From contig JBHPFW010000005.1 of NCBI GenBank assembly GCA_042571645.1, positions 1,536 through 65,535 of the forward strand: a stretch of DNA of 64,000 nt. The letters run 5' to 3'. Under the pieces are notes generated by a model that saw nothing but the letters and a program-made list of their open reading frames with translations, was not told the DNA's origin and did not search any database. The stretch is from Nanobdellota archaeon (GTDB lineage: Archaea; Nanobdellota; Nanobdellia; Woesearchaeales; JBHPFW01). Positions 3,109 through 60,763 of the stretch are shown here, one piece after another; positions within the stretch are counted from its first letter, which is position 1; every line of letters starts with the position of its first letter. The translations under genes and the position numbers were made by a program.

Positions 3109-3153
3109 AGAAAAAGAAAGAACTTATTGGTTTAAATATGCTCCCCTCGTAAG

Positions 3154-3166
3154 TGTCCAGTGGGAA
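3154..3166 (-). promoter_or_regulatory. palindromic box 1 (TTCCCACTGGACA), 15 bp upstream of TATTTAAA
   Basis: Box end is 46 bp from the exonuclease ATG at 3108; the same motif and spacing occur at 22317, 36007 and 63038. Confidence 0.7.
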
Positions 3167-3170
3167 TTCT

Positions 3171-3773: not shown

Positions 3774-3874
3774 GTGAAAACCCTAAACCAAACTGAGTTT
3801 ATATACTTTTTCAAAATCCACTTTCATCAGATTTATAGATAATATTTAAAAAGCTCTAAAACCGGGATTTCGAT

Positions 3875-6103: not shown

Positions 6104-7750
6104 CTAAATCTTAATCGCAACAGCATTAATCATTCTTTTTTGTTCTTTCTTGATGCTGTCAACAACTTTCTTTAATTCTTCTGGATCTAATTTGCCGTTC
6201 TTTTCAACAGAATAAATTCCAACTGCATTTTTCTTGTCAGAACTTTGATTTACTCCTGATTGTCTAATATTATAGCCGGCATTTGCAAATGTTTCTGAGA
6301 TAAAAGCATTCATGCCTGGACCTTCTTCATATTGGAATATTGCAATAAGCTCTTCCTTAGTTAATTCAAAGCCTACTCCAATTCCATCAATGGTTGTTAT
6401 CTTTGGAACTCCATCAACCAAAGTAGCTCTAATTACATGTCTAATCTTTCCTTCATCTGCTTTATACTTTACCTCGATAACATAACCATGCTCTCCTGTT
6501 TCCTCTGTTGAAGATTTTATTTCTATTCCAGAAGTTTTTGCTTTAGCTAGTGCTTCTCCTGGCTTTATAGTCGAGGCTTCTCCCTCTGCTTCAAAGACTC
6601 CTTTGATAACGCAGCCAGAAAGTTGTTTTGCATATTTGCTTAAACCACTGAATGCAGTAAGCTTTAGTCTTTCTGGAGATCTATCATTAGCCAAACCATA
6701 AGCTATCATTCCAAGATCTGTTGCTAATCCTGCATAATCCCTCATCTTACTCGGTATTGGAGAGTTAACTGCATTAACAACTATGCCTTCTGTTAAAAAG
6801 TCAACTACTTGTCTTGCAGCAGCAGTTGCTGCATTAAAATTTGCTTCCGAAGTATTTGCCCCTATATGCGGAGTAAAAATTGCATTGCTTAATTCAATCA
6901 TCTCAGAATCTGGTGCTTCTCCTTCATGAGAGACATCTGCTGCATATTTAAAATCAAGATTCTTTTTGAGATGTAAAATTAATTCTTTTTTATCTACAAC
7001 CTCTGCTCTTGCTGAATTAATTAACAAACCATCCTTTTTCATCAATCCCAATAATTTTAAGTTAATTGAATTTGTTGTTTCTGGTGTTGCAGGAATATGT
7101 AATGTGATAATATCTGCCTCTGCATATAATTTTTGCAAATCGTCAACTAATGTTACTCCAAGTTGTTCTGCAACATCTGGCATTACATACGGATCAAAAG
7201 CATATATTTCCATGCCAAATCCGTGAGCTATTTTTGCAACAATCTGTCCAATATTCCCAAAGCCGTGTATGCCTAGTTTTTTTCCTTTTAGTTCTCTGCC
7301 TGCACATTCTTTTTTTAGAAACTCACCATTTGTCAAACCAATATGTCCCTTAGGTATATTCCTTTTTGCACTTACAGCTAGCCCGAAAACCAGTTCTGCT
7401 ACAGCATTAGAATTCTGGCCAGGAGTATTCATTACAGTTACACCTTCTGCTTCTGCAGTTTTTGTATCAATTGTGTTAAACCCTGCACCGCCTCTTACAA
7501 TTAGCTTGAGAGAATTGTCTTTATTGCTTTTTCCTGCTGAAATCTCTTCTGGATTTATCTTATCACTTCTGACAATTACTGCATCATAACCTTTTTTCAG
7601 CTCATTTCGTAGATCGTTTTCTGATTTATATGACTTAAGAACATTTACTTTTAATCCCGCAGCTTCCATTATCTTGACTGCTGTCTGCTCTGCTTCTTTT
7701 GCATATGGTGATTTTGTTGCTATTAGGACTTTTTTCTTTTTATCTGACAT
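6104..7750 (-). CDS. serA: D-3-phosphoglycerate dehydrogenase (long form with C-terminal regulatory domains)
   Basis: VRS, RGGAGFN, NTPGQNSNAVAE, GIHGFGNIG, INSAR and TPHIGA motifs; GAGGT SD before the ATG at 7750. Confidence 0.85.
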   Translation of the reverse strand: MSDKKKKVLIATKSPYAKEAEQTAVKIMEAAGLKVNVLKSYKSENDLRNELKKGYDAVIVRSDKINPEEISAGKSNKDNSLKLIVRGGAGFNTIDTKTAEAEGVTVMNTPGQNSNAVAELVFGLAVSAKRNIPKGHIGLTNGEFLKKECAGRELKGKKLGIHGFGNIGQIVAKIAHGFGMEIYAFDPYVMPDVAEQLGVTLVDDLQKLYAEADIITLHIPATPETTNSINLKLLGLMKKDGLLINSARAEVVDKKELILHLKKNLDFKYAADVSHEGEAPDSEMIELSNAIFTPHIGANTSEANFNAATAAARQVVDFLTEGIVVNAVNSPIPSKMRDYAGLATDLGMIAYGLANDRSPERLKLTAFSGLSKYAKQLSGCVIKGVFEAEGEASTIKPGEALAKAKTSGIEIKSSTEETGEHGYVIEVKYKADEGKIRHVIRATLVDGVPKITTIDGIGVGFELTKEELIAIFQYEEGPGMNAFISETFANAGYNIRQSGVNQSSDKKNAVGIYSVEKNGKLDPEELKKVVDSIKKEQKRMINAVAIKI

Positions 7751-7815
7751 ATTCATACCTCTTGTCTTGAATAATAATGACAATTTAGGCCATTATTTAA
7801 AGGTTTTTACTGGGT

Positions 7816-8205
7816 TTATTCTTTTTCCTCTTTTTTCTTAAAAAACAACCAGTTTTCAGGACCGGATTTGGAGAACTTAACCAAAACAAATTGCCCATTT
7901 AATTTTTTACCATTAAGCTTGAAAACAATCTTAGAGTCTTTTTTATCAATTGATTCATAAGTTCCTCTATCCCATATCTTCACAGTGCCAGCACCATATT
8001 GTCCTTCAGGTATTTCACCCTCAAAATCAGCATAATCAAGATCATGGTCTGCCACACTCACAGCAAGTCTTTTTACTTTTGGATCAGTACTTGGCTCTTT
8101 GGGTATAGCCCACGATTTCAGCACTCCATCAATCTCTAATCTAAAGTCCCAATGAAGATGGCTTGCATCATGCTTTTGCACTACAAATATTGGTTTTTTT
8201 GGCAT
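7816..8205 (-). CDS. stand-alone LigD-type 3'-phosphoesterase (PE) domain protein
   Basis: FVVQKHDASHLHWDFRLE, LKSWAIPK and FEGEIPEGQYGAG.V.IWDRG motifs. Confidence 0.92.
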   Translation of the reverse strand: MPKKPIFVVQKHDASHLHWDFRLEIDGVLKSWAIPKEPSTDPKVKRLAVSVADHDLDYADFEGEIPEGQYGAGTVKIWDRGTYESIDKKDSKIVFKLNGKKLNGQFVLVKFSKSGPENWLFFKKKEEKE

Positions 8206-8240
8206 ATTGAGGCTTAGGAGATAAATATTTATAAGTATTA

Positions 8241-9971
8241 TTGCCTGAAATGCCTATAATGCCAAATAAACAGCTTGAAGATTATATAAAAAAAGAGGAA
8301 GTACAGGGTTATACCCCTGATCAACTTTATCAACTTCTTGTTAAACAAGGCTATAATCCAAATGAAGTCAGGGAAGCTATTGATGCTGCAGCTGGAAATC
8401 CTGCAGCTCCTGACCAACCAGGTAATAATGTAACTGCACAAACTTCTGCACCAAAAAGCAACTTAGGTCTGATTATAGGTGTTCTTTTCCTGATAATTAT
8501 TATTGCAGGCGTGGCTTTTTGGTTTTTTACCATGCCTGTATGCGGTGATGGAAAAATGCATGAATCGGAAACATGGCAGAACTGCTGTGCTGATGTTTCA
8601 TGTCCTGGTCAGATGACCTGTGATTCTGAAAATATGGTTTGTAAAGATCCTGTATGTGCTGAGTGTCAGTATTTGGAGAATCATGTCTGCAAAGATTACG
8701 AATGCTGTAAAAACGAAGATTGTACTGAAACTCAAATCTGCCAGGATCATAACTGTGCTGAGTTAGAATGCGGTGAATGCCAGTATGCAGAGAACCATGA
8801 ATGCAAGGATCATGAATGCTGCGACAATGACGCCTGTCTGGAGACAGAGAAATGTCAGGACAACAAATGCATTGAGGTGGTGGGATTAACTGAAGAGGAA
8901 ACAGTGACAGAGAAAGATACTGGGGATTTTTATTGTGCTGAATCTGAAAACGAAGAGATCCCTATCAGCTTCTGCTCAGAAAAGTCAAATTATGAGCTAC
9001 AGGAAGACACATTTTTTGATATATCCACAGATTATACCGGTGAACCGAAAGAAGTTGCTATGATAACAAAAAGATATCGAGAAGGATTTGAAAGAGTTTT
9101 TTATAAGGATTATACTGCTAATCTATCAAACTCTGAAATAAAATATATCTCTATAGTAAGAGATACTTCTTTTAAGAATGACAAACAGGCATTTATTATT
9201 ACAGATAAAAGTTCTTCAGCTCCAAAAACATCATTCATTTATGAAGGAAACTACATTTATTTGCTTTATGTTTATGATTGCGAAGAGTTGCTATCTCATA
9301 ACCTCGATTGTACACTTAATGGGTTAGAAGATACAACCAAAGACAGGTTTAAAAGTCTGTTCTTTTGGAAAGATACTGATTTTGAGAATATGATGACAAA
9401 TGTCTCAAATATTGCTTCTCTTAAGTTGGATATATCTGTAAGCGGAGGAAAACTTCAATGTACAGAAGATCAGGAATGCCAGCAACCCTGTGAATCTTGC
9501 AATGAAAGTACTCACAGATGTACTCCAGAATTCAGATGTGTTGAATGCACTTCAAAAAAACATTGTAAAAAAGGGTATGAATGCAGATGGAATAAATGCA
9601 TCCCTGATCCAGAATATTGCGAGGATGTATCTGATTGTTCTGAGTGTGGTGGTTGTTCTCCTGGTGCAGTCATTTGTAGAAACAACAACTGTGATTATTG
9701 CAGTCCCTTTTCCGGAAAGGAAAATTCCTGCCTTCAGGGATATACTTGTGAAGATTGGGGTTGTGTAGATGTCAACGTGCTTGATAATGTCCCAAAATGC
9801 AAAATAGGAATCTGTGCAATATCAAATAAAACCATTAATCCAGAAATCGGATGTGTGGCCAGCTCAGAACCAAGTAAACATCTAAGATGCATGGAATGCC
9901 ATAGCAATCTGAATTGCAAATCAGATTACTATTGTCATAATTATGAATGCGTACAGCTTGATACAAATTAA
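8241..9971 (+). CDS. membrane-anchored Cys-rich repeat surface protein
   Basis: Short N-terminal cytoplasmic domain, one TM, then many C-x-x-D-x-x-C type modules; the start may be the ATG at 8250. Confidence 0.75.
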   Translation: MPEMPIMPNKQLEDYIKKEEVQGYTPDQLYQLLVKQGYNPNEVREAIDAAAGNPAAPDQPGNNVTAQTSAPKSNLGLIIGVLFLIIIIAGVAFWFFTMPVCGDGKMHESETWQNCCADVSCPGQMTCDSENMVCKDPVCAECQYLENHVCKDYECCKNEDCTETQICQDHNCAELECGECQYAENHECKDHECCDNDACLETEKCQDNKCIEVVGLTEEETVTEKDTGDFYCAESENEEIPISFCSEKSNYELQEDTFFDISTDYTGEPKEVAMITKRYREGFERVFYKDYTANLSNSEIKYISIVRDTSFKNDKQAFIITDKSSSAPKTSFIYEGNYIYLLYVYDCEELLSHNLDCTLNGLEDTTKDRFKSLFFWKDTDFENMMTNVSNIASLKLDISVSGGKLQCTEDQECQQPCESCNESTHRCTPEFRCVECTSKKHCKKGYECRWNKCIPDPEYCEDVSDCSECGGCSPGAVICRNNNCDYCSPFSGKENSCLQGYTCEDWGCVDVNVLDNVPKCKIGICAISNKTINPEIGCVASSEPSKHLRCMECHSNLNCKSDYYCHNYECVQLDTN

Positions 9972-10011
9972 AACCCATAAACTTAAATAGCTAATTTCTC
10001 CTCCATACAGC

Positions 10012-12177
10012 ATGTGCGGTATAATAGGTATATTTGGACAAGAATCTGCAAGCAAATATGCAGCTGAAGGCCTGAAAATCATTGAAAACAGAGGAAAAGA
10101 CAGCTTCGGAGTATTTGACGGAAAAAAGGTTTTCTTTGAAAAACAACTAAATCAGCTGAATAATAAAATAAAAAACAACACCTCAAATAACTGTCTTGCA
10201 CACAATCTTCATTCAATTGTTAATTTTGTTCCACAACCAATTAAAGGAAAACAAGGCATACTCGCAGCTAACTGTGAAATATATAATTGGAAAGAACTTA
10301 ATGAAAAATACAAACTTAAAGCAAAGAATGATTCTGAACTTCTACTAAACTTAATTGAAACAAAAGGAATTAAAAAAATTAAGGAAATTTTAAAAGAAAT
10401 TAGGGGTGTTTATTCTTTTGCTTATTGGACAAATAATGAAATAATTATTGCCAGAGACATAATCGGTGTAAAACCATTATGGTACTTTAATGATAAAAAT
10501 ACATTTGCATTCTCATCAGAAAGAAAAGTATTAGTTAATAATAATTTTATTAAAAATGACGATATTGAGGAATTAAATCCCAGAACAATTCTAATTTATA
10601 ACATTAAAACCAAAACTCTCAAAAAAATAAAAAGAAATTTCTTCAAAACAACTCCTCAAATAAAAAAAACCAAAGAAAAAATAAAAGCGGAACTAAAAAA
10701 AGAAATAATTGAAGCAATAAAGATAAGAATCCCGGAAAAACAGAAATTTGGCATACTCTTCTCAGGCGGCATAGACTCCACAACTATTGCCCAAATCTCA
10801 AAAAACCTGGACAAAAATTTCACCTGCTATAGTGCTGTTCTGGAAGAACCTGGAATGGAACCAGCTAAGGATTATATTGCTGCACAGAAAGTTGCCAAAA
10901 AACTTGGTTTTAAGTTAAAAGTTAAGAAAATCAAGCTGAAAGATGTAGAAAGATACCTAAAGAAAATTGTTCCACTAATCGAAGACAATAATGTTGTCAA
11001 AGTTGGTGTTGCTTTAACTTTCTATGTTGCCTGTGAATTAGCTAAAAAAGACAATATCAAAGTAATTTTCTCTGGCTTGGGTGCAGAAGAGTTATTTGCA
11101 GGCTACCAGCGCCATGAAAACAGCACAGATATCAACAAGGAATGCCTTAAAGGATTTATTGAAATCTACGAGAGAGACACTTACAGGGATGATGTTATTA
11201 CTATGAATAATAACCTAGAACTCCGAGTGCCGTTTATGGATAAAAATCTGATAGACCATTGCCTCAAGATCCCATCAGAACTAAAGCTAAAAAAAGAAAG
11301 GGGGGATTGGAGAAATAAAATTATTCTAAGAGAAATAGCTAAAGATCTTGGAATTCCAGAAGAATTTGCAGAACGCAAGAAAGTAGCTGCGCAATACGGC
11401 AGCAAATTCGACAGAGCAATACAGAAACTTGCTAAAAAACAACACCAAAAGAAATCAGAATATCTCAAACAATTCTACAATAAAGGAAATGTTCCTTTAG
11501 GAGTACTATTCTCAGGAGGAAAGGATTCTGTTTATGCAATGCATACAATGATTAAGCAGAATTACGATATTAAATGCCTAATAACAATGAAAAGCATTAA
11601 TCCAGATTCCTATATGTTCCATACTCCAAATATCAATCTTGCTGAACTCCAAGCAAAAGCAATGGACTTACCGATTATTGAGCAATCTACTCACGGCAGA
11701 AAAGAAGAAGAACTTAAAGACATGGAAAAAGCCATAAAAAAGGCTATGAAAGAATATCAAATTAAAGGAATTGTTACAGGAGCATTATATTCCAATTATC
11801 AACGTGAACGTGTCCAGAAAATCTGTGATAAACTTGGCCTAAAAACATTCTCTCCATTATGGCATATTGATCAAGAACTTGAGATGAGGAGTTTAGTCAA
11901 ACAAGGCTTTGAAGTTATTATTAGCTCTATTGCAGCAGATGGTTTAAGCAAAGAAGATCTAGGCAAAACCATAGACAACAAATTCATTGACAGAATAGTC
12001 AAACTAAACAAAAAGAACCAAATAAATATTGCAGGAGAAGGTGGAGAGTTTGAGACTTTAGTACTAAATTGTCCTCTATTCAATAAAAAGATAAAAACAG
12101 AAAAAGCACAAATTGTCATGGAAAACCAATGCACAGGCAGATATATCATCAAAAAAGCCTCCTTAATGAATAAGTAA
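10012..12177 (+). CDS. fusion of glutamine-dependent asparagine synthetase B-like domain and diphthine--ammonia ligase (Dph6)
   Basis: MCGIIG Ntn start, NCEIYN, SGGIDS and SGLGAEELFAGY; then a second PP-loop SGGKDS, SYMFH and GEGGEFET. Confidence 0.88.
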   Translation: MCGIIGIFGQESASKYAAEGLKIIENRGKDSFGVFDGKKVFFEKQLNQLNNKIKNNTSNNCLAHNLHSIVNFVPQPIKGKQGILAANCEIYNWKELNEKYKLKAKNDSELLLNLIETKGIKKIKEILKEIRGVYSFAYWTNNEIIIARDIIGVKPLWYFNDKNTFAFSSERKVLVNNNFIKNDDIEELNPRTILIYNIKTKTLKKIKRNFFKTTPQIKKTKEKIKAELKKEIIEAIKIRIPEKQKFGILFSGGIDSTTIAQISKNLDKNFTCYSAVLEEPGMEPAKDYIAAQKVAKKLGFKLKVKKIKLKDVERYLKKIVPLIEDNNVVKVGVALTFYVACELAKKDNIKVIFSGLGAEELFAGYQRHENSTDINKECLKGFIEIYERDTYRDDVITMNNNLELRVPFMDKNLIDHCLKIPSELKLKKERGDWRNKIILREIAKDLGIPEEFAERKKVAAQYGSKFDRAIQKLAKKQHQKKSEYLKQFYNKGNVPLGVLFSGGKDSVYAMHTMIKQNYDIKCLITMKSINPDSYMFHTPNINLAELQAKAMDLPIIEQSTHGRKEEELKDMEKAIKKAMKEYQIKGIVTGALYSNYQRERVQKICDKLGLKTFSPLWHIDQELEMRSLVKQGFEVIISSIAADGLSKEDLGKTIDNKFIDRIVKLNKKNQINIAGEGGEFETLVLNCPLFNKKIKTEKAQIVMENQCTGRYIIKKASLMNK

Positions 12178-12242
12178 TTCTTAATCAAAAAACAGAAATA
12201 CAATAAATATATTTAAATATAGTGAAATCCCAAATCCTTAAT

Positions 12243-13889
12243 ATGAGTTTAATCCGGAAAATCAAAGATCTTGCAAGATTTGAACAGGTAATTTCTACAT
12301 TATTCAAATATGATCTTGGCTATTTAATCAAAAGAATAAAACTGCACAAATTTCTCTCAGCAAAAGACAGGCTAAAAAAGCAGAAATTTCTTGAAAAAGA
12401 GTACAAACCAAAGTTATTAAGAAAAGCTCTGGAAGAGCTGGGCGGAGGATTCATAAAACTAGGCCAATTACTAAGCTTACGTCCGGATCTTATACCTAAG
12501 GAATATTGTGATGAATTTTCAAAACTTCAGGATGAAGTCAAGGCTTTCCCTACAGAAGAAGCAAAAAGTATTATTGTAACTGAACTGAAAAAATCCATGA
12601 AAAAAATTTTCAAAGAATTCAGTGATAAGCCTATTGCAGCTGCTTCCATAGGACAAGTTCATAGAGCAACATTAAAATCAGGAGAAGAAGTTATAGTAAA
12701 GGTACAAAGACTTGGTGTGAAAGAAAAGATTCAGCAGGACATTGACATCCTAAAATATTTAGCAGAACTTATTGACGAGCATCTTAGTCTTGAGTTTGTT
12801 GATTTTGAAGGAATTGTTAAGGAAATAGAACGCTATACAAAAGATGAACTTGATTATCTGAAAGAAGCGCATAATATAAATACCTTCCGCGAACATAATA
12901 AAGATGACAAAACAATTATAGTTCCAAAAGTATATAATGATCTCACAACTAAAAAAGTTTTGGTGATGAGTTTTATTAATGGTGTGGAAATAAAAAAGAT
13001 TAAAAAACCAAATAGAAAACTTGCTAACATAGTTGTTAATTCTGTACTAAAACAGGTCTATATTGACGGATTCTTTCATGCTGATCCCCATCCCAGCAAT
13101 ATTTTAGTAGTTCGGAACAAAATTGCTTTTATTGATTTTGGGATTATTGGCAGATTTAACAGGGATTTGAGAAAAAAGATGTTTTCATTGTTTCAGTCAT
13201 TAATAGAAAGAAGCTCTGAGGATCTGGTAAAAGCATTAATCAATCTAGGTGTTGTCGAGGAAGAGATTGATCAAGAAACTATTAAAGAGGATTTTAGTGC
13301 TAATTTTGATAAATATTATAGTTCTAAGCTCGAAGAAATTGATTTTGGAGAAGTATTCCATAAAATAACTGAAATAGCAAGAAAATATAAGATAAAACTT
13401 CCTGTTGATTTTGTACTCTATGGCAAAACAGTTATAACTGTTGAAAGTGTTGCTGAAAAACTCGATCCCAAATTCAATATTGTTAAAACAGCCAAGCCTT
13501 TTATTGAGAAACAACTTAAAAAACAGCTTGATCCATTGAATATTTTTGATGAAATAAAAGATAATGCAACAAGACTTGCAGATTTTCTGAAGAATGTGCC
13601 GATAAAAACCAGAAGGATTTTAAGTAAAATTGATAAAACTGAAAAAAGTCTAAAAGAAATAGATAAAGATCTAAAAATTTTCACAGAAGAAGTAGATAAA
13701 TCAAGCAATAGAATTGCATATGCCATGATTCTCACAGGAGTGCTGATATGCTCTGCTTTGCTTTTCAATGAAAAGACTTATACTATTCTTGGGATTTCGG
13801 CATTTTCCTTTGTTGGATTTATAATTGCCGGCATAATAACAATGATGATAATAGTTTCTGTTTTAAAAGAAAAAAGATTCAAAAGATGA
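12243..13889 (+). CDS. ABC1/AarF/UbiB atypical kinase family protein
   Basis: FIKLGQLLS.RPDL, AAASIGQVH, VKVQR, FFHADPHPSN and IDFG motifs; two C-terminal TMs. Confidence 0.92.
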   Translation: MSLIRKIKDLARFEQVISTLFKYDLGYLIKRIKLHKFLSAKDRLKKQKFLEKEYKPKLLRKALEELGGGFIKLGQLLSLRPDLIPKEYCDEFSKLQDEVKAFPTEEAKSIIVTELKKSMKKIFKEFSDKPIAAASIGQVHRATLKSGEEVIVKVQRLGVKEKIQQDIDILKYLAELIDEHLSLEFVDFEGIVKEIERYTKDELDYLKEAHNINTFREHNKDDKTIIVPKVYNDLTTKKVLVMSFINGVEIKKIKKPNRKLANIVVNSVLKQVYIDGFFHADPHPSNILVVRNKIAFIDFGIIGRFNRDLRKKMFSLFQSLIERSSEDLVKALINLGVVEEEIDQETIKEDFSANFDKYYSSKLEEIDFGEVFHKITEIARKYKIKLPVDFVLYGKTVITVESVAEKLDPKFNIVKTAKPFIEKQLKKQLDPLNIFDEIKDNATRLADFLKNVPIKTRRILSKIDKTEKSLKEIDKDLKIFTEEVDKSSNRIAYAMILTGVLICSALLFNEKTYTILGISAFSFVGFIIAGIITMMIIVSVLKEKRFKR

Positions 13890-52858: not shown

Positions 52859-53725
52859 TTATTTTTTAACTGATTTTTCTTCCTGTTTTTTTTCTGTTGC
52901 AGATGGTGCTTTGTAAGATTCTGTGAAAAGTTTTTCCTGCGATAGTTTACTTATTGCTGATTCTGTCCATAAGGTCAATCTTCCCGGTTCTGCTCCAGGA
53001 GCTAATAGATCTGTATTTATTTTCTGAACTAAAACAACATCCACGCCAGGAATATTTGCTCCTGAATTAAGCAAAGCACAATCATCTCCCACAACAATCA
53101 GTGGCCCAATCTTGTTTTGATATTTTCTTCCTCTGGCTTTTCCCCTTCCAGCTCTAATTTTAGTTTTTGAAGATCTGATAAGCTCTTCTTTCAAACCAAA
53201 CTTCTCTAGTGTTGAAATAACTTCTTTTGTTTTTGACAAAGATTGAATTTTATCTTCGATTATGAAAGGATAATTATCTGGAACCTTGTGGCCTTTTTGA
53301 GAAACAATATCTTTAATGACTGAAGCTGACATAGCAGATCTAATTGCTTTTCTTCTTTCTTTTTTGTTTACTTTCATTTTTAGTAATTTTGATGTTTTTG
53401 GTGGATGAGCTCTTCTACCTCCAACTGTATTTGGAGCAAATGCTCCAACCCAATACATTCTAGTGCCTCTTCTGCTGAGTATTTTTCTTGGGGTCCTTGA
53501 AATTCCGTAACCATAACTTGTTCTATATTTTCTTCTTCTCTTTGGAATATCTGAACTTACTTTTTTTCCTGCCTCTGGATCAGCACCATGAGACTGTCTC
53601 TTATGACTCCGAATTGCTAAAACTGCTCTCTTGATTATGTCATCTCTCACAGGCTCATTGAATTGACTGGGCAATTCTACTTTTCCTTGTTCCTGATTTT
53701 CAATTGTTAGTTTCGGTACTTGCAT
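52859..53725 (-). CDS. rpl4: 50S ribosomal protein uL4
   Basis: VGGRRAHPPK, RAGRGK.RGR and LAPG..PGRLT motifs. Confidence 0.96.
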   Translation of the reverse strand: MQVPKLTIENQEQGKVELPSQFNEPVRDDIIKRAVLAIRSHKRQSHGADPEAGKKVSSDIPKRRRKYRTSYGYGISRTPRKILSRRGTRMYWVGAFAPNTVGGRRAHPPKTSKLLKMKVNKKERRKAIRSAMSASVIKDIVSQKGHKVPDNYPFIIEDKIQSLSKTKEVISTLEKFGLKEELIRSSKTKIRAGRGKARGRKYQNKIGPLIVVGDDCALLNSGANIPGVDVVLVQKINTDLLAPGAEPGRLTLWTESAISKLSQEKLFTESYKAPSATEKKQEEKSVKK

Positions 53726-53752
53726 TTTTATTTCCTATTTGATTTCCTCTAT

Positions 53753-54751
53753 TTAGGCTTCTGTTTTTGCAGATTTTAAATTAAAATTGATTGATTTTAT
53801 CTCTGGAGCTTGATTTGGGATTCTTTTGCTGGGTCTTGTTGCGAGGTTTAATCTAATCATCCTTTTTGCAGGTCCTAAAATACTTCCCTTAAGAACTATG
53901 TAAGGATTTTTTATAACACCATACTTCCTGAATCCGCTGTCTGGATTTATTTTGGAAACATCTTTATCTAAACTTAATATCCATTTATTATAATCTGTTC
54001 TGTTATGGCAACCTGTTTGTCCTGCATGAGCAACTCTATACATCACGTGCTGCTGGCAGGTCCATCCACCTAAAGATCCTGGAGCCCTTCTTGATTTCTC
54101 TGACTTATGACTTTTTAGACCAATACCGAATCTTTTTACAGGACCTTGATATCCTTTACCTTTTGTTACTGCATGTATATCTACTTGCTGCCCTGGCTGA
54201 AGAATTTCATCAACATGAATTTCCTTGTTTAGATGGTCTTTTACGAATGTTATTTTGTCAGCATTATTGCCGCCCATTGACATTTCAAATAATTCTGGTT
54301 TTTTCTTGCCTAATCCTGTAAGTTTTGGCTGGGTATAAACAATAAGTGTCATATCATCATATTCATCTGCATTAATTGAATCAATTTCTTTTTCAGAAGT
54401 CTTTTTTCTTTTTGGAATTTTTCTCAGGAGATCTTTATCAATAGGAAAAGCAAGTTCTTTGGCAGGCTGCAAACCATTGTGCTTATTTTTATAGAATCTT
54501 ACTCCGCATATTTTTAATGGCGGGCATTCAATTATTGTGACAGGACAACTAATGGTCTCTCCTTTTGTAGTTGAGGCTTTTCTATTGTCTGTAAAAGTAA
54601 CATGTGTCATACCAACTTTATATCCTGCAAATCCTAAGGGCTTGCTCTCTTTAATGTTCTTTGCCTTAGAGCTAACTCTAGAATATTGTCTTTTAGCGCG
54701 TTTTCTAGGCCAAACTCCCATGCTTCCATGTCTTGGGTTTCGTGCTTTCAT
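53753..54751 (-). CDS. rpl3: 50S ribosomal protein uL3
   Basis: PR.GS...PRKR, GYKVGMTH, TKGKG.QGPVKRFG and GQ.G.H.RT motifs. Confidence 0.97.
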   Translation of the reverse strand: MKARNPRHGSMGVWPRKRAKRQYSRVSSKAKNIKESKPLGFAGYKVGMTHVTFTDNRKASTTKGETISCPVTIIECPPLKICGVRFYKNKHNGLQPAKELAFPIDKDLLRKIPKRKKTSEKEIDSINADEYDDMTLIVYTQPKLTGLGKKKPELFEMSMGGNNADKITFVKDHLNKEIHVDEILQPGQQVDIHAVTKGKGYQGPVKRFGIGLKSHKSEKSRRAPGSLGGWTCQQHVMYRVAHAGQTGCHNRTDYNKWILSLDKDVSKINPDSGFRKYGVIKNPYIVLKGSILGPAKRMIRLNLATRPSKRIPNQAPEIKSINFNLKSAKTEA

Positions 54752-55049
54752 TTTGTTGATGTGTTATTGATTTATGTTATTGTTGTGAATTTGATGGATA
54801 TGACTAAATTTCTTGAAAAACCGCTATTGAAAAACACCAAAATAAGACTAATTTAGCTAAAAAAGCAAATTTTGGGGTCTATTTGCCTTAACAACCTATT
54901 ATTTCAGCCTTTCTTTCAGAAGAAGTCTATTTAACGAACCTCGTACTGAAAGACTGTTTTTCAGGCTTGGCTTTATGATTTACAATGCTTAAATCCTTAT
55001 TTTTTATGTTTAAGCACTCCTACTAAGCTATTTGGTAGATTAAATGGGC

Positions 55050-55057
55050 CTTTATAA
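55050..55057 (-). promoter_or_regulatory. probable TATA box of the ribosomal superoperon
   Basis: TTTATAAA about 300 bp upstream of the rpl3 start, implying a long leader. Confidence 0.4.
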
Positions 55058-55113
55058 ATATTCCGGGTTTAGAAACCAAGAAAAAGAACTGCTAATTTCT
55101 ACTAATTTGTAAT

Positions 55114-56577
55114 TCATCCCTTCCTAACAACATCCCTAAACTCCCTCTCATATTTCTTAGCCCATGAATTATAGAATCTGATTGCTCCAATTGAAGTTAA
55201 TGGTTCTGCTATTCCATAACCTTGGACATTATGACATCCACTTGAGTAAAGAGATCTCATTTGGTCTGGGGTGTTAACACCTTCTGCTATAACAGTAATT
55301 CCATACTTGCTGGCTAAATCTATTACAGCTTTGATCTCTTCTGCATACTTCCTATAATTTTTCCCGGTAATTATCGATTTGTCAAGTTTTAGTATGTCTG
55401 GCTTTAGATCCTTTAATTTAAATAAACTTGTTGCTTTTGATCCAAAATCATCTATAGATATTCCAACTCCTAGTCCTCTTAGATCATTTATAATCTTAAT
55501 AGCATTATCATCAACAACAATATCCTCATTTAATTCCAAAACAATATATTGAGGATCAACTTTGGAAAGTTCTAATGCATCTTCTACAGTCTGTACATAT
55601 TTTTCTGAAAAGAATTCTTTTTTACTAACATTTACTGAAACTGTAAAATCATTATATCCTTTATCTAGCCATTTTTTTCTTTGTTCACCTGCATGATATA
55701 ATACCCAACCACCAATGTCTAGAATTAATGACTTTCTTTCGGCAAATGGTAAGAAATCATCTGGCATGATAATTCCGCGATCAGGATGATCCCATCTTAT
55801 TAATGCTTCATATCCTTTTATTTCCCCTGAAGAAAGATCTACAATTGGTTGATATTGCAAAAAGAATTCATGCTTTCTAATTGCAATTATTAAATCTTCT
55901 TGAAGCTGATGAAGGTCTTTAACTTTTCTCTGTAAACTAGAATCATAATAAGCAACATTTTTCCCTTGCTCCCTGGCACTTAACATTGCAAGATCTGCTT
56001 GAGTCACAAGATCTTCTGGAGTGAGTTCATTGCTTTGTTGAGGATAAGTTGTTATACCAATAGTTGATAATATTTGCAACTCTATTCCTTGATATTGGAA
56101 AGGGTGTTCAAGTGCTCGTGTTATCTTTCTTACTTCTCTGTCAATATCAAATTCATTGTTAATTCCTGAATAAACTAATACAAATTCATCACCAAAAGTT
56201 CTTGCAGCAATATCTTTATCAATTACAACCCTGCTAAGTCTCTCGCCTGTTTCTCTTAAAAGTTCCTCAGCTACTGTTCTTCCATGATTCTGGATAATAT
56301 TCATAAATCCACTTATATCTAAAAGCATTACAGTAAAATCATCCTCAGCAGCTATTAAATCTTCAATATGACTGTACAATTTTGTTCTGTTTGCTAAGCC
56401 AGTTAAAGAATCCCGATAAGCAATATTTTCCAAATCATCAAGCTTCCCTGTGAGTTCATCCAGCTGTCCAAGTATATCTCCGGTATCAGTTTCTGACCCT
56501 GTTTTTCTTAGCCCAGCAAGCAACTCTTTTATCCTACCAACTAAATCAAAGTCCCTCATAGATTTTGGTAATAGCAC
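55114..56577 (-). CDS. GGDEF-EAL protein (degenerate cyclase, apparently intact EAL phosphodiesterase)
   Basis: DSLTGLANR and RTFGDEF; QPIV, EALIRW, SVNVS, LELNE, IDDFG, LKLDKS, AEGV and QGY motifs. Confidence 0.92.
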   Translation of the reverse strand: MLLPKSMRDFDLVGRIKELLAGLRKTGSETDTGDILGQLDELTGKLDDLENIAYRDSLTGLANRTKLYSHIEDLIAAEDDFTVMLLDISGFMNIIQNHGRTVAEELLRETGERLSRVVIDKDIAARTFGDEFVLVYSGINNEFDIDREVRKITRALEHPFQYQGIELQILSTIGITTYPQQSNELTPEDLVTQADLAMLSAREQGKNVAYYDSSLQRKVKDLHQLQEDLIIAIRKHEFFLQYQPIVDLSSGEIKGYEALIRWDHPDRGIIMPDDFLPFAERKSLILDIGGWVLYHAGEQRKKWLDKGYNDFTVSVNVSKKEFFSEKYVQTVEDALELSKVDPQYIVLELNEDIVVDDNAIKIINDLRGLGVGISIDDFGSKATSLFKLKDLKPDILKLDKSIITGKNYRKYAEEIKAVIDLASKYGITVIAEGVNTPDQMRSLYSSGCHNVQGYGIAEPLTSIGAIRFYNSWAKKYEREFRDVVRKG

Positions 56578-56670
56578 AGAAGATATAAATCTTTCGAAGC
56601 ATAACGTCTACAAAGTAGTTACATTCATATAGCTTGAAACTTAAGAATTCAATGGTTTAAGACAATAAGG

Positions 56671-57360
56671 TTATTTATTCTCCTTCCTAACAATCTTCAA
56701 TAATTCTCTAACATCCCCTATTTCATAATCAGCATAATCTTTTGGAATGCCTCTGTGCTTGACACTATAACCATACTTTGCAAAACAAGTTTTCATGCCT
56801 AATTTCTTTGCTCCCCTGACATCTCTTTCAGGCCAATCCCCAATCATTAATACTTCTTCTGGTTCTAATTTGAGTGAAGTTAAAGCTAATTTGAAAGGCT
56901 TTGGATGAGGCTTAAATTTCTTAGTATCATCATGTGTTATAACTAAATCAAAATAATGTGTTAATCTTAATGCAGCCAACCTAGTCCAAGCTCTCATTCT
57001 AGGAGCATCACTTACAACTGCCAACTTAATTCCTTTTTGTTTTAATCCCATTAATGTTGAATTAACATGAGGATATGTATTCAAAAATCCTTCTTTAACT
57101 TTTCTGTAAGAAACAATTCCATTAGCTAAAATACAATAATCAATTTTCTTATTTAATTTTGTGAGTACTTTCTGGAATATTGTTTTGTCTTCAATGCCAT
57201 GTTTATCATAAAGCTCGTAAAGAATCTTTAGGCCCTTTTTCTTATCAACATTCAATCCAGCATCTCTCATTGCAGACATTGCCTCTTCACAGGCATGCTT
57301 CTTCATCTTCATGAAATCCATTAGTGTATTGTCCAAATCAAATAGTACTGCTTTTATCAT
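56671..57360 (-). CDS. HAD-family hydrolase (YjjG-like nucleotidase class)
   Basis: FDLDNTL, KPHP and IGD...DV.GA...GM motifs. Confidence 0.9.
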   Translation of the reverse strand: MIKAVLFDLDNTLMDFMKMKKHACEEAMSAMRDAGLNVDKKKGLKILYELYDKHGIEDKTIFQKVLTKLNKKIDYCILANGIVSYRKVKEGFLNTYPHVNSTLMGLKQKGIKLAVVSDAPRMRAWTRLAALRLTHYFDLVITHDDTKKFKPHPKPFKLALTSLKLEPEEVLMIGDWPERDVRGAKKLGMKTCFAKYGYSVKHRGIPKDYADYEIGDVRELLKIVRKENK

Positions 57361-57418
57361 ATCAAGAAAAAATACACTTTAGCTTATTAAGTTTATGGAA
57401 GAAAAAGGATAAATATGG

Positions 57419-59251
57419 TCAAAAACCAAAATATTTCTTATAATTTTCCTGCAAGACCTTTTTTGACTGTATTAATCTAATTATCTCTTGCATCTTCTTT
57501 TCCTTAGTTAGTATGTTCTTGATTTGTTTTGGATATTTTTGCTGGAGTTCCTCTTCCAAAACAAGAGCAGTATCAAGATAACCATCAAAATTAGAAGAAT
57601 AAGATGCATCTACAATATGCTTATAACTACTCCGATAAGGCAGATTTATTAAATCTGTTGGCTTTGTGAATTCACATAATCTTGCCGCAATTTGATCTTC
57701 AGAGAAGTTAGAATAAGTATGAATTTCATTTGAAACAAAAATATTCACAAGATCCACTAAGTTATTCAATAAAACCAAAAGCACTGCAATTTGTTTGTTA
57801 AATCTTTTGTCTTTATAGTTTTCATTTATAATCTTAAAGCTGCTATGAATAATACGTATTGTTTCAAAAATAATTTCTGAATTCTTAAAAAGACCATTTT
57901 CATGTTCTCCTACATTATGATTTTTTCTTATAAACTTAGTAGCTAAATGAGCTTGGTTTTGATAAGTCGAAAACTCCCTCGATATTGTACCTACATCTGC
58001 AGATTCATATGAAAAATATGCATTTAAAGATTCTTTTGCAAAAGATTCTAATAATTTATGGTGTGGGGAATAACCATAACTGGGATGAGCGAGTTCAGAT
58101 CTCCCAACCTTAAGCAAAAAGTTATTAGCTGCATTATACACGCTGCCTTGTTCAACAATCAATAAACCTATACCTAACTTATGAAATTGTTTTCTTATTT
58201 CCTCTAACTCCTCATCTGTTTTGAAAATACTTTTAGCAACAATTACAAAGGAATCTGGAGGTATCTTTAAATTTCCTTCTACAAACGTATCACTAGGCCC
58301 AAATTTAATAATTCTATGTTTAGGAAAATTATACATAGGTATGATGATTACGACTTTTTTATCTTTCCAAGAATGTGATTCGCCAACAGCATCTACATCT
58401 TTAACAACATGGTTTAAAGTAAAATGTATTGTTGAAAATGTAGGAAAAATACCATGTGTTTCGTCAGTAAAAACATTTTCGTGAAGAGATAGTGAACTTC
58501 TTATAACTCCTTTGTAAGGAAATTGATTTGTTAGATGAACTAGAAGAAGACCCTCTATTGTCCCGGGATATTTTAATGATGATTTAGAGCCCGCATAATA
58601 AGAAAAAATTAATGAGTACTCCATTAGTATGCTGGAAAATTCGGAGACTATTAATTGAAATAATTTTTGAGATAACTCATTTTCTTTGTTTAAAATCTCA
58701 TTGATTTCATCATAATCTTCTTTTTCTTTGTAAAAAATGTTAAACTTGGGCAGGACTTCTTTTTGTTTTTCTAATACTTCTTTTAATTGAGGAACAGTTG
58801 TTCTAATCTCCTGATCTAATGCATGGATTTGTTCTGTTAATGCTTTTGTCTTTTTAATTTGGACTATTAATTCTAAATCTTTCTTAAACCTCTCAGTTAT
58901 TCCTGCGCCCAAAAATGACTCTTTATTAAACACGCCATTTAAAAAATTCAACAACGGATTCTCTTTTTCTAACAAAGCTATTTCAGAATTAATTATTTTA
59001 ATCTGTTTGTTTGAAGCTTTGATTAATTGTTTTTTTAGAAATTTTCTTTTGTTAAAATTCATATCTGCAATTTTTTCCAATATATCAACTTTTAATTTAG
59101 AAAGATATAAAAAATTATTAAGAAGTGTTTTATTTTGTTTTAAATAATCTTTTAAGCTATTTAGTTTCTTTGATACTTCAGGAGGATTCTCTTTTAATAC
59201 ATCCTGAATGAATTGTTTTAAGTTCATATACTCATCTAAAACAAGATCCAT
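57419..59251 (-). CDS. hypothetical protein with helical N-terminus and central putative catalytic domain
   Basis: LVHLT..FP, TIHFTLNH.V, SW...IIIP and SDT motifs. Confidence 0.6.
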   Translation of the reverse strand: MDLVLDEYMNLKQFIQDVLKENPPEVSKKLNSLKDYLKQNKTLLNNFLYLSKLKVDILEKIADMNFNKRKFLKKQLIKASNKQIKIINSEIALLEKENPLLNFLNGVFNKESFLGAGITERFKKDLELIVQIKKTKALTEQIHALDQEIRTTVPQLKEVLEKQKEVLPKFNIFYKEKEDYDEINEILNKENELSQKLFQLIVSEFSSILMEYSLIFSYYAGSKSSLKYPGTIEGLLLVHLTNQFPYKGVIRSSLSLHENVFTDETHGIFPTFSTIHFTLNHVVKDVDAVGESHSWKDKKVVIIIPMYNFPKHRIIKFGPSDTFVEGNLKIPPDSFVIVAKSIFKTDEELEEIRKQFHKLGIGLLIVEQGSVYNAANNFLLKVGRSELAHPSYGYSPHHKLLESFAKESLNAYFSYESADVGTISREFSTYQNQAHLATKFIRKNHNVGEHENGLFKNSEIIFETIRIIHSSFKIINENYKDKRFNKQIAVLLVLLNNLVDLVNIFVSNEIHTYSNFSEDQIAARLCEFTKPTDLINLPYRSSYKHIVDASYSSNFDGYLDTALVLEEELQQKYPKQIKNILTKEKKMQEIIRLIQSKKVLQENYKKYFGF

Positions 59252-59284
59252 TTAAATATGTTTTCAAAAAATAAAGTTCTCAAA

Positions 59285-60763
59285 TCAAGAATTAGATACT
59301 TTGGATAGCTCTTTTTCTTCCTTCAATTCTTTCTCTTTTTCTTTTTTCATCTTTCTAAATTTTCTTCTTGCTTCCTTCTGCTCCTCAGTTAATGGCTCGC
59401 GTTTAGCTTTTGGTTTATTTAACTTGTCTTCTTCTTTTTTCTTCTCGCGATTTATTCCGCGGATTTTTTTAATAGCATAATTAGCAGGATTCTTGACATA
59501 ATTACAATAACTATCTGGCGTGCATATCTGCATTCCTTTGTAATACATGTCATTATCACAATTTGGCGGCAGAATTTTCTTTTTGTGCTGTTTGTGATAT
59601 CTTAGCTGACCAACAATTAAGTTCTCCCGCAAAGGTTCTGGATTTTTTTCATTCCACTGCTTCATTAATTCCTCTATTTTTTCATAACTCCAGCCGCAAG
59701 TTGTTAAGAAATTAATCAGGATAAACATTGATCTTTTTTTTCCATCCTGTAATCCTTTTAAAATATTTTTTATGCATGGAGGGAATAATTCTTCAGGTAT
59801 TGCATTTTGTATCTGGGCGAATTCCTTGTGTTGTTTCTCTGCAGAATCACTTGAAAATATTTTTTCTCTTCTTTCTTTTTCTTTTACATCCTCTTTTACT
59901 TCAAAATCATAGGCATTTATTAAAAGAGATTTTGCTTCTCCTGATTTTGCTTTTTCTCTGTCAAGAAATTTGTATTTATTGACTTCAACCTTTTCTGGCT
60001 TGGCTGATTCCTTATCAAATTCTAAGATTTTATTCGGATCTACTGGTACAGAAACTAACCCTGATTTTTCATTAAATGAATAAGGCATTCTATAAAGATG
60101 CCTTGAAGATATTAGAATTGTGTCGATTGCTAGTACTTTGAAAGGATCAAAGATATTATTTTTTACAACTTCATTAAATTCTTTTCCTGTCTTTTTTATT
60201 ATCTCAGTAACTTCTTCTTTATCCAATAATGCTTTTGCTAATTTTTTTCTTATCATCTCCTGAAGATATAGTGCAACTCTTTTCGGGCCTTCTGGAAATA
60301 ATAATCTTGCTTCATTTCCAGTAATTGTTTCTGGAAATGATTCAAACGGCACTGCTATATGAAAGCCGTGATTTCCAGAGAATTTTATGGATACTGCATT
60401 TATGTCATGATATTGCAATGCTTTTACAATTAAATCTGCGGCAATACTAGAATACTCCAGAACAGGACAATCTATATCCAGCATTAAATCCCACCCAATC
60501 CTTAAATCATCCATTTCCTGTTTCTTTAGAGATGTATTTATCTGCAATGGATTATGCCATAATTCTTCAGAAGCATGAAAACTTGTAGCGCCCTGTTTGG
60601 CAAACTCCAAAACATCATTTGGATAATGTAAAGAATCTGGGCGTTTACCAAAACCATTATCCCCAAATTTAACAGCTATTTCCTTATTTTTTGCAGCTGC
60701 CACTATTGCTTTCTGTATTTCTGGTCGTTTGTAAAATAACAAAGTTGTACTTATATTGAGCAT
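59285..60763 (-). CDS. fused archaeal DNA primase (PriS catalytic + PriL Fe-S domain)
   Basis: LDID, KFSGNHGFHI and RMPYS motifs; then FPPCI, PPNC, C....C and NP. Confidence 0.92.
   Translation of the reverse strand: MLNISTTLLFYKRPEIQKAIVAAAKNKEIAVKFGDNGFGKRPDSLHYPNDVLEFAKQGATSFHASEELWHNPLQINTSLKKQEMDDLRIGWDLMLDIDCPVLEYSSIAADLIVKALQYHDINAVSIKFSGNHGFHIAVPFESFPETITGNEARLLFPEGPKRVALYLQEMIRKKLAKALLDKEEVTEIIKKTGKEFNEVVKNNIFDPFKVLAIDTILISSRHLYRMPYSFNEKSGLVSVPVDPNKILEFDKESAKPEKVEVNKYKFLDREKAKSGEAKSLLINAYDFEVKEDVKEKERREKIFSSDSAEKQHKEFAQIQNAIPEELFPPCIKNILKGLQDGKKRSMFILINFLTTCGWSYEKIEELMKQWNEKNPEPLRENLIVGQLRYHKQHKKKILPPNCDNDMYYKGMQICTPDSYCNYVKNPANYAIKKIRGINREKKKEEDKLNKPKAKREPLTEEQKEARRKFRKMKKEKEKELKEEKELSKVSNS

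Follow-up and report, generated by a model that had tools for sequence, protein, structure and literature searches.

A bacterial-type GGDEF-EAL gene with a degenerate cyclase half and a complete EAL catalytic set, resident in a Woesearchaeota-type archaeal genome

PdeA (CC3396) of Caulobacter couples a degenerate GGDEF domain to an active EAL domain and is a GTP-activated phosphodiesterase. Receptors of the LapD/FimX type possess an EAL domain without the catalytic metal ligands, together with an N-terminal membrane/HAMP or REC/PAS module. The conserved loop 6 motif of EAL domains is worded DFG(T/A)GYSS. This loop was reportedly found by Rao et al. in 2009 to be important for both dimerisation and catalysis. 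[quoted passage not shown] Here we describe a GGDEF-EAL gene from an archaeon of the Woesearchaeales (assembly GCA_042571645.1), encoded within a window of 64,000 nucleotides, the whole stretch of DNA that was analysed, in which it has the following features and neighbours.

53753-54751, minus strand: rpl3 (Ribosomal_L3, E 6.6e-64)
54752..59284, minus strand: 4.5-kb lineage-specific block between the fused primase gene and rpl3, holding an orphan 610-aa gene, the HAD hydrolase gene and the GGDEF-EAL gene
55078..55088, minus strand: T-rich run TTCTTTTTCTT, 26-36 nt past the GGDEF-EAL stop codon (read from the sequence)
55114..56577, minus strand: GGDEF-EAL gene (ORF list; Pfam GGDEF and EAL; AlphaFold2 model; structural match 5m3c_B)
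55201..55896, minus strand: EAL domain (Pfam; alignment to 119 bacterial homologues)
55957..56421, minus strand: degenerate GGDEF domain, FGDEF (Pfam; alignment to 119 bacterial homologues)
56416..56556, minus strand: N-terminal pair of helices, residues 2-20 and 26-48 in 481-aa numbering (DSSP on the model; no Pfam match there)
56583..56589, minus strand: TTTATAT, resembling a TATA box, with its centre 27 nt upstream of ATG 56559 (read from the sequence)
56671-57360, minus strand: HAD hydrolase gene (TIGR02253, 190.2 bits vs. a cut-off of 169.75)
59285-60763: fused primase gene

The open-reading frame is intact and, in the program's ORF list, runs for 487 codons from a GTG at 56577, beyond which the frame stays open for only 10 more codons (497 aa). 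The likelier start is probably the ATG at 56559, giving a protein of 481 aa, the length of its database copy (P0001). Pfam matches GGDEF (PF00990) at residues 53-207 (E 2.1e-30, 106.1 bits vs. a cut-off of 23.8, profile 1-160 of 161) and EAL (PF00563) at residues 228-459 (E 9.3e-63, 212.2 bits vs. 31.3, profile 3-236 of 236). An AlphaFold2 model of the 481-aa form shows a confident, compact predicted fold (pLDDT 92.5, pTM 0.82), for which the top fold-search match is the PA0575 GGDEF-EAL structure (5m3c_B, TMq 0.72), and helix 26-48 is predicted to form a stalk into the GGDEF domain. The initial annotation had described a protein with neither a transmembrane segment nor a sensor domain, and this holds: no membrane or hydrophobic segment was found (top 19-residue Kyte-Doolittle mean 1.14), and no sensor or additional domain was detected by Pfam or in the model, where only two N-terminal helices stand ahead of GGDEF. 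No signal peptide was seen. Upstream of the gene the TTTATAT element is preceded by a purine-rich CGAAAG, and we infer that together they form an archaeal promoter from which a leaderless mRNA would be transcribed, whilst the downstream TTCTTTTTCTT run is possibly an archaeal oligo-T terminator.

Residue status was read from a MAFFT alignment against 119 bacterial homologues. Of the 22 positions with at least 95% conservation among the homologues, the GGDEF domain keeps 15, its losses being substrate-binding and catalytic residues. Nine signature positions are changed (D89S, K92M, N95I, D96Q, H100R, G103A, D104E, R119I and G128F), and the GTP-binding or motif changes amongst them (K92M, N95I, D96Q, G103A, D104E and G128F) fall at positions conserved in 114-119 of the 119 homologues. 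Active cyclases carry GG(D/E)EF with the Lys, Asn and Asp of FKxxND and the Gly-Asp; here these are replaced and the motif itself reads FGDEF. The RxxD I-site, an optional cyclase feature, is absent and reads IDKD, with Ile in place of the Arg of 101/119 homologues (R119I). Judged by these residues, the GGDEF half is without catalytic function and has probably lost GTP binding, and with the N-terminal stalk helix it most likely acts as a scaffold or dimerisation module only.

The EAL domain keeps 31 of the 36 positions conserved at that level, and its catalytic and metal-binding set is complete at 10 of 10 positions (E257, R261, N316, E348, E351, D376, D377, K397, E432 and Q452), each invariant or nearly so in the 119 homologues. 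The motifs quoted in the initial annotation ('LDISGFMNIIQ', 'FGDEF', 'EAL', 'NVS', 'LELNE', 'DDFG', 'KLD', 'AEGV' and 'QG') are all present, and its description of a degenerate cyclase beside a retained EAL catalytic set agrees with the alignment. As the set is kept and the cyclase half is degenerate, the phosphodiesterase-only enzyme that it proposed is the best reading of the sequence, and since all metal-binding and catalytic residues are kept, hydrolysis of c-di-GMP to linear pGpG would be the most likely activity.

The EAL domain also departs from the homologues at T350N, at four loop 6 positions (G381K, Y382A, S383T and Y387K) and at E435N, and the initial annotation makes no mention of T350N, loop 6 or E435N. 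At the sites of T350N and E435N, 114-117 of the 119 homologues share the usual residue, and E435N turns EGVE into EGVN where 117 homologues have Glu. Loop 6 reads GSKATSL (within DFGSKATS) against a near-invariant GTGYSSL, so departing from the loop that marks the active EAL class, with G381K, Y382A and S383T replacing a G, Y and S found in 115, 110 and 116 of the homologues, respectively. The deviations in loop 6 and at the second EGVE Glu leave activity uncertain, and the sequence criteria quoted in a passage of PMC12900916 likewise grade such an EAL domain 'uncertain' for activity. With that proviso, the protein is most likely a sensor-less c-di-GMP phosphodiesterase.

The same departures, the degenerate loop 6 and the change of EGVE to EGVN, bear on an alternative in which the EAL domain is catalytically silent or very weak and the protein binds c-di-GMP as a sensor or scaffold (class II/III EAL or LapD/FimX type), signalling by protein contacts instead of hydrolysis. 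The protein shares a degenerate GGDEF domain with LapD and FimX, which both turn up among the sequence and fold matches, and known receptors are absent from the genome and near-absent in the order (PilZ in 4/351 genomes), so that any use of the messenger would require a receptor of a kind yet to be recognised. The catalytic-base Glu and every metal ligand are however kept, residues that the EAL domains of LapD and FimX are not known to have; the loss of the I-site Arg makes c-di-GMP binding by the GGDEF half unlikely, and the protein carries neither an output nor a partner domain. We consider a sensor or scaffold role unlikely, though a serious contender.

The closest relatives of the protein are bacterial GGDEF-EAL proteins sharing 36-38% identity, those that are named belonging to Pseudomonadota, and the protein is a singleton among 5.8 billion proteins, of which the best other one shares 36% identity. 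The homologues carry PAS, MHYT, REC and CHASE sensor domains, which it lacks. A phylogeny, suggested in the initial annotation as a means of telling a DPANN clade from a recent transfer, was run on 61 EAL domains (the target, five archaeal rows of the order, and the first 20 plus a random 35 of the 119 bacterial hits, 55 in all; the weak EALs of genomes G094 and G315 were excluded), in which placement is biased as the bacterial rows were picked by their likeness to the target. The target sits on a terminal branch of 1.18, against a median of 0.23, and no well-supported clade of this tree holds it, and several long branches meet; we draw from it neither a donor nor an order of events. Our preferred reading, to which we give about an even chance, is that this bacterial-type gene was horizontally acquired long ago, is now fully adapted to a Woesearchaeota-type (DPANN) genome and likely encodes a c-di-GMP phosphodiesterase.

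An old transfer could also have left a decaying remnant without present function, and a singleton gene on a long branch, with 12 substitutions at positions at least 95% conserved in its homologues and with their sensor domains gone, is what such decay might produce. Against this, the 1.46-kb frame is still open in AT-rich DNA, the losses are concentrated at the GGDEF active site whilst 10/10 EAL catalytic positions survive at ~40% overall identity, and the gene has native codon usage, a promoter-like element and a confident, compact predicted fold. We regard a remnant as distinctly unlikely.

For the preferred phosphodiesterase, the rest of the genome supplies possible partners. The genome search that the initial annotation had advised was partly productive, recovering a second GGDEF gene (HGDEF) and an HD-GYP-like gene, but no PilZ and no MshEN; nor was a DAC or SMODS cyclase found in the genome. 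The second GGDEF protein, on contig 14, is an orphan in which the metal Asp is retained along with Lys, Asn, Asp and His, and the guanine-contacting Asp is changed to Asn. Its one match at E<=1e-30 among 1.84 billion representatives is itself, matches are confined to the GGDEF domain (27-43% identity), and residues 1-217 are covered by no homologue match. The HD_5/HD-GYP-like gene lies 3.6 kb from this cyclase gene (57.2 bits vs. a cut-off of 27.2; LHDMGK and HHHVRYSDGYP motifs); in the alignment of its product to PmGH (4mcw, E 1.3e-9) there is a gap of one residue ahead of GYP, and HHE is replaced by HHH. On contig 14, no Pfam or Rfam match was obtained for the spacer or for the small ORFs. 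Neither c-di-GMP-I nor c-di-GMP-II riboswitches were matched in the 82%-complete assembly; the c-di-GMP-I blank says little, as the control for it passed its cut-off in 0 of 14 control genomes.

A census of the source order recorded GGDEF in 197/401 genomes, HD-GYP-type domains in 96/401, EAL in 7/401 and PilZ in the 4/351 given above, whilst a phylum-wide draw, which overlaps the order draw and adds little, placed EAL over the cut-off in 7 of 391 genomes, nine having any match, all from the 'same order'. The initial annotation started from the premise that c-di-GMP signalling is essentially absent from archaea, which the GGDEF count and the cyclases described in the passages of PMC13725321 cited above render out of date. 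In Woesearchaeota-type archaea cyclase genes are thus common, not occasional, with HD-GYP as the usual hydrolase, EAL as a rare, repeatedly imported extra and PilZ almost absent; the present small genome provides one definite example in which the three turnover domain types (GGDEF, EAL and HD-GYP) are all found.

As the genome also has the second GGDEF and the HD-GYP-like gene, an internal c-di-GMP circuit is plausible, and we infer that the two contig-14 genes and the EAL gene could form a single circuit. The EAL protein would in this case lower the dinucleotide made within the cell by the contig-14 HGDEF protein, the only recognisable cyclase in the genome, and would act alongside the HD-GYP-like hydrolase. 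A more elaborate proposal, which we hold to be quite doubtful, is a self-contained cyclic-dinucleotide circuit in which the orphan HGDEF cyclase perhaps makes a product other than plain c-di-GMP, the EAL and HD-GYP-like proteins are its two hydrolases, and the receptors are of a new kind, possibly the small proteins outside any known family whose genes lie between the HD-GYP-like and cyclase genes on contig 14. If true, a whole archaeal order would use the messenger via receptors not yet described, given GGDEF in about half and PilZ in ~1% of the genomes searched. The short, soluble, sensor-less EAL protein would suit the same reporter assays as the archaeal cyclases.

The initial annotation also raised the alternative of an active phosphodiesterase that acts on outside dinucleotides, from a host or neighbouring bacteria, or on another dinucleotide such as 3'3'-cGAMP. 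An enzyme with no sensor domain may indeed be constitutive, the sole cyclase candidate is unorthodox (HGDEF, with the base-reading Asp changed to Asn), and a 'cyclic di nucleotide phosphodiesterase' EAL protein (6ifq) is among the weak PDB matches. However, the protein has neither a signal peptide nor a membrane segment, and an enzyme in the cytoplasm would depend on substrate import, to which nothing points; its EAL residues for substrate binding are those usual for c-di-GMP. We consider an outside or different substrate improbable.

The gene, which we continue to read as an old and adapted acquisition, resides in native archaeal DNA. Its position between rpl3 and the HAD gene had been taken in the initial annotation as a sign that it is not stray, and flanks, GC, codon usage and the primase-rpl3 neighbourhood all concur. 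The gene has a GC content of 33.9%, against 34.4 +/- 2.6% for long ORFs in this 34% GC genome, and its codon-usage distance is at the 23rd percentile among 192 ORFs of similar length. Across 80 rpl3 loci from Woesearchaeota/Nanoarchaeota genomes, the primase is upstream of rpl3 on the same strand in 40, and less than 600 bp from it in 24 of the 61 loci having at least 2 kb upstream; the two genes adjoin directly in many Woesearchaeota. Homologues of the three block genes were found in 0/80 of these loci (tblastn E<=1e-5). Amongst the block genes, the HAD gene passes the cut-off of TIGR02253 only (NCBIfam), whilst the 610-aa neighbour has no Pfam family, a single NCBIfam match far under the cut-off, and sub-threshold leads only in an Atlas search; the 362-bp spacer before rpl3 gave neither a meaningful Rfam score nor a tRNA. 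An assembly chimera or bacterial contamination is most improbable, for although the gene is known from one 77-kb contig only and its nearest relatives are all bacterial, both flanks are archaeal and lie side by side in related genomes, the gene matches its genome in GC and codon usage though the named relatives are Pseudomonadota, the contamination estimate is 0.06%, and identity to bacterial proteins does not exceed 38%. A look-up of sequencing runs for positions 53600-57600 listed none.

The best solved-structure sequence matches are PA0575 (5m3c) and MorA (4rnh) of Pseudomonas aeruginosa (query 50-462, E 1.6e-68 and 3e-63), which have the same two-domain core, fold and EAL catalytic residues and also lead the fold search. 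The archaeal protein shares only 31-34% identity with them and differs in its host and in loop 6 (GSKATSL here, GTGYSSL there); their GGDEF motifs are intact in the alignments, whereas it reads FGDEF and no longer has the residues that bind substrate. The 5m3c entry is titled as GTP-bound. PdeA is similar in pairing a dead cyclase domain with an EAL domain whose catalytic set is complete (E ~1e-37 for the EAL match; the PdeA EAL structures 3u2e, 3s83 and 4hjf are among the sequence and fold matches), but the archaeal protein has no PAS sensor and an altered loop 6, and GTP activation in the style of PdeA is unlikely because the A-site Lys, Asn, Asp and Gly-Asp are replaced. LapD and FimX (3pjw, 6pwk, 4j40 and 7lkq) share the tandem of degenerate GGDEF and EAL domains and occur among the sequence and fold matches, the sequence matches being much weaker (E 1e-19 to 1e-22, 18-23% identity); neither hallmark of that receptor type is found here, as the metal-binding and catalytic residues are kept and membrane, HAMP, REC and PAS parts are lacking. 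The best NCBIfam matches, DibA (NF045675), PRK10060 and DosP, cover the GGDEF-EAL core, their C-terminal two domains only, and orthology to a named NCBIfam enzyme was rejected with scores far below the equivalog cut-offs (DibA, 290 bits vs. 980). The proteins of Sidorov et al. (PMC13725321), among them a Methanocella GGDEF-HD-GYP protein and Woesearchaeota MAG proteins, are similarly bacterial-type turnover domains in verified archaeal DNA, mostly of DPANN, but as described in its passages they are cyclases, one with HD-GYP, and its main-text and supplement passages considered here contain no archaeal EAL protein. The GGDEF-EAL gene is a rare archaeal example of an ordinary, known enzyme type and not a new system.

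The GGDEF-EAL gene encodes a protein which, read from its sequence, is sensor-less, cyclase-dead and of bacterial ancestry. Its open reading frame (minus strand) runs for 487 codons from a GTG, and the open frame extends just 10 codons further 5' (497 aa in total). A TTTATAT element preceded by CGAAAG is centred 27 nt 5' of an ATG at 56559, which would fit an archaeal promoter of a leaderless mRNA and would agree with a 481-aa form starting at that ATG, as in the database copy of the protein (P0001). The GGDEF and EAL domains reported by the initial annotation are both full-length in Pfam (residues 53-207, E 2.1e-30, and 228-459, E 9.3e-63), every motif it quoted is present in the protein, and no hydrophobic segment was found (maximum 19-residue hydropathy mean 1.14), in line with its statement that a transmembrane segment is absent. 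The top NCBIfam matches are bacterial GGDEF-EAL phosphodiesterases, e.g. DibA, PRK10060, GepA and DosP, all far under equivalog cut-offs and aligned only over the two-domain core. The AlphaFold2 model (45 sequences) is confident (pLDDT 92.5, pTM 0.82), with the GGDEF and EAL domains preceded by a pair of helices at the N terminus (2-20 and 26-48, numbered on the 481-aa form), and Foldseek ranks the GGDEF-EAL protein PA0575 first (5m3c_B, TMq 0.72), then MorA and DosP.

Comparison with the 119 nearest bacterial homologues, and with alignments to PA0575 and MorA, set the two domains apart. In the GGDEF domain, D87 (the first metal Asp) and the motif's 'GDEF' survive; much of the rest of the signature is substituted (D89S, K92M, N95I, D96Q, H100R, G103A, D104E), as are the I-site Arg (R119I) and the motif's initial Gly (G128F). 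The domain keeps 15 of 22 positions of at least 95% conservation, and six of the seven lost are substrate-binding or catalytic residues. Cyclase activity is very unlikely on these residues, those that would bind GTP as an allosteric ligand are gone as well, and the degeneracy described initially amounts to nine signature substitutions. The EAL domain keeps 31 of 36 highly conserved positions and, as claimed, its catalytic set, with all ten hydrolase residues in place (E257, R261, N316, E348, E351, D376, D377, K397, E432, Q452), departing at T350N, in loop 6 (G381K, Y382A, S383T, Y387K) and at E435N. A published rule, in the available text of PMC12900916, grades EAL domains with all signature residues as active, those missing the catalytic-base Glu of EGVE as inactive and the rest as 'uncertain', and this domain would be graded 'uncertain'.

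We consider the chances about even that the protein is a c-di-GMP phosphodiesterase. That it only binds, as a sensor, is rather unlikely; the loop 6 changes and E435N are compatible with it, and the complete hydrolase set speaks for catalysis. A decaying relic would account for the substitutions at conserved positions, and the protein is without orthologues, but we infer that the EAL site is probably still under selection, since the loss is so uneven, with the cyclase site wrecked and all ten hydrolase residues intact at ~40% domain identity; decay is accordingly improbable.

The phosphodiesterase reading gains a context from the rest of the genome, where a search for GGDEF, PilZ, MshEN and HD-GYP proteins, as the initial annotation had proposed, yielded the first and last of these, all on contig 14:

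7067-8488, minus strand: second GGDEF gene, 473 aa, between the aIF2-gamma and rpS15 genes
3.6 kb from that GGDEF gene, minus strand: HD_5/HD-GYP-like gene, 353 aa, adjoining an Orc1/Cdc6 gene
~7067-13530 (3068-9531 of retrieved locus L131), minus strand: the whole string, comprising Orc1/Cdc6, HD-GYP-like, a 160-aa orphan, doubtful ORFs, a 221-aa orphan and GGDEF

The second GGDEF protein retains the metal Asp, Lys, Asn, Asp and His, its motif is HGDEF and an Asn replaces the guanine-contacting Asp; its N-terminal ~260 residues gave no match, and both of the large protein searches show it as an orphan. The HD-GYP-like protein carries LHDMGK and DGYP motifs and aligns to the HD-GYP enzyme PmGH (4mcw). 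Between the two genes lie the family-less 160-aa and 221-aa ORFs and 1.3 kb of doubtful coding, and these small proteins are candidate partners or receptors. Searches of the assembly, which is 82% complete, gave no PilZ, MshEN, c-di-GMP riboswitch, DAC c-di-AMP cyclase or SMODS. An enzyme acting on foreign or other dinucleotides, with which the missing sensor domain and the altered guanine contact of the second GGDEF protein could be reconciled, is improbable for a protein with no hydrophobic segment and the usual c-di-GMP residues at its EAL substrate site.

After the GGDEF-EAL protein itself, the best-matching proteins are bacterial GGDEF-EAL proteins, 32-38% identical and aligned across 84-93% of the query; they bear PAS, MHYT, REC, CHASE or GAF sensors that the archaeal protein lacks, and those with a named source are mostly from Pseudomonadota. 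Other EAL proteins of the same order share only 25-32% identity and are built differently: three PAS-GGDEF-EAL, two stand-alone EAL, one EAL-HDOD (L040, from G315, a genome flagged unpublished) and one weak EAL. Both stand-alone EALs (L036, L042) belong to one genome, G355, where one of them has an HDOD-domain gene and thymidylate synthase as neighbours. Most archaeal EAL copies have a degenerate loop 6. As to a DPANN clade versus recent transfer, a tree of 61 EAL domains, itself without resolution, has the protein on a long branch (1.18 vs. median 0.23) and not sister to the other archaeal EALs. Since bacterial GGDEF-EAL proteins are nearest, and the other archaeal EALs are more distant, differently built and not sister, the unit appears to have been imported from bacteria in one piece, independently of other archaeal EALs, from a donor that cannot be named.

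The surrounding DNA (G000:C5:1536-65535; assembly of 1.49 Mb in 55 contigs, 82% complete, 0.06% contamination) reads on the minus strand as primase, 610-aa gene, HAD, GGDEF-EAL, spacer, then rpl3 and the ribosomal protein operon, with rpl3 and HAD flanking as first described:

59285-60763, minus strand: fused PriS-PriL primase, 492 aa, one ORF matching PF01896 (small subunit) and PF04104 (large subunit)
57419-59251, minus strand: orphan 610-aa ORF
56671-57360, minus strand: HAD hydrolase, TIGR02253-type (NCBIfam)
55114-56577, minus strand: GGDEF-EAL ORF
54752-55113: 362-bp spacer between the GGDEF-EAL stop codon and rpl3

The 610-aa ORF has no Pfam family, a sole NCBIfam match far under cut-off, a low-confidence Atlas model (pLDDT 0.41) and only sub-threshold Atlas leads. 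Within the spacer a further TATA-like element, TTTATAA, lies near 55055, and neither an Rfam family at a meaningful score nor a tRNA was found in it. The closest relatives of rpl3 come from 80 loci (46-59% identity), nearly all labelled Woesearchaeota, Nanoarchaeota or Nanoarchaeia and two just 'archaeon'; co-assembly bins including L057, L058, L064 and L069 have Woesearchaeota-like rpl3 and gene order under the title 'uncultured Methanosarcinales archaeon', apparently a discrepancy in labelling. In 40 of the 80 loci, rpl3 is preceded on its own strand by the primase. In the 61 loci that extend upstream for 2 kb or more, the primase is <600 bp away in 24 and not seen in 21, whilst 16 have 0.8-5.9 kb of unrelated genes in between, so the junction is conserved in many Woesearchaeota, yet a variable slot. 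The slot contents (25 gap ORFs from 11 of these 16) include an ABC transporter, NAD(P)H-hydrate dehydratase, TBP, MCM and a rhomboid protease. No homologue of the GGDEF-EAL, HAD or 610-aa genes was detected in the 80 loci (tblastn, E<=1e-5). Given primase-rpl3 adjacency in relatives, the absence of all three genes there and the unrelated contents of other slots, they constitute a 4.5-kb lineage-specific insertion (54752-59284) in a conserved archaeal junction. The GGDEF-EAL gene matches the genome in GC (33.9% vs. 34.4 ± 2.6%, 838 long ORFs) and codon usage (its distance ranks at the 23rd percentile among 192 comparably long ORFs), with GC3 at 20% vs. 25 ± 4%, and its import would be old enough for a fully native composition. 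It is a genuine resident gene, archaeal by its location, and the initial view that it is no stray contig stands; an assembly artefact, which its status as a singleton on one contig (search of 5.8 billion clustered proteins) might raise, is barely credible against this composition and setting.

Samples of the one order, many of them incomplete assemblies and relatives not mutually independent, gave the following genomes over Pfam cut-offs:

GGDEF: 197/401 genomes (including G182, G205, G207, G209, G244, G303, G337 and G374, flagged unpublished)
HD_5: 96/401 genomes (including G120, G131, G205, G207, G303, G337 and G374, likewise flagged)
EAL: 7/401 genomes (order and phylum draws both include the flagged G315)
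PilZ: 4/351 genomes

GGDEF reached six matches per genome, and 27 of the best 30 GGDEF loci have a GG(D/E)EF motif (counting L018 from G205 and L024 from G337, both flagged genomes). In the available text of earlier studies, Galperin et al. 2018 (PMC5847659) recognised a single archaeal GGDEF, that of Methanocella, and were sceptical of those from MAGs; the 70 MAG-derived archaeal HD-GYP ORFs listed by Galperin and Chou 2021 (bioRxiv 10.1101/2021.11.05.467447) appear there as possible contaminants, and for Römling 2022 (PMC10086821) archaeal GGDEF had still to be confirmed. Sidorov et al. 2026 (PMC13725321), in the portion available, report cyclase activity for GGDEF proteins of archaeal isolates and MAGs, the active MAG proteins being mainly from DPANN, Woesearchaeota among them. 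These cyclases and our GGDEF count contradict the premise, adopted initially, that c-di-GMP machinery is essentially absent from archaea. Our literature search, with subscription journals outside its coverage, found no report of an archaeal EAL protein, and the gene is among very few archaeal EAL genes. Its value lies in context, with cyclase-type and HD-GYP-type genes in the same genome, and in an order where cyclase genes are common and known receptors almost absent; EAL/HD-GYP co-occurrence and receptors are named as open questions in the available text of PMC13725321. That text describes turnover proteins as seemingly occasional, not multi-copy, and GGDEF in this order is commoner and more multi-copy than that impression.
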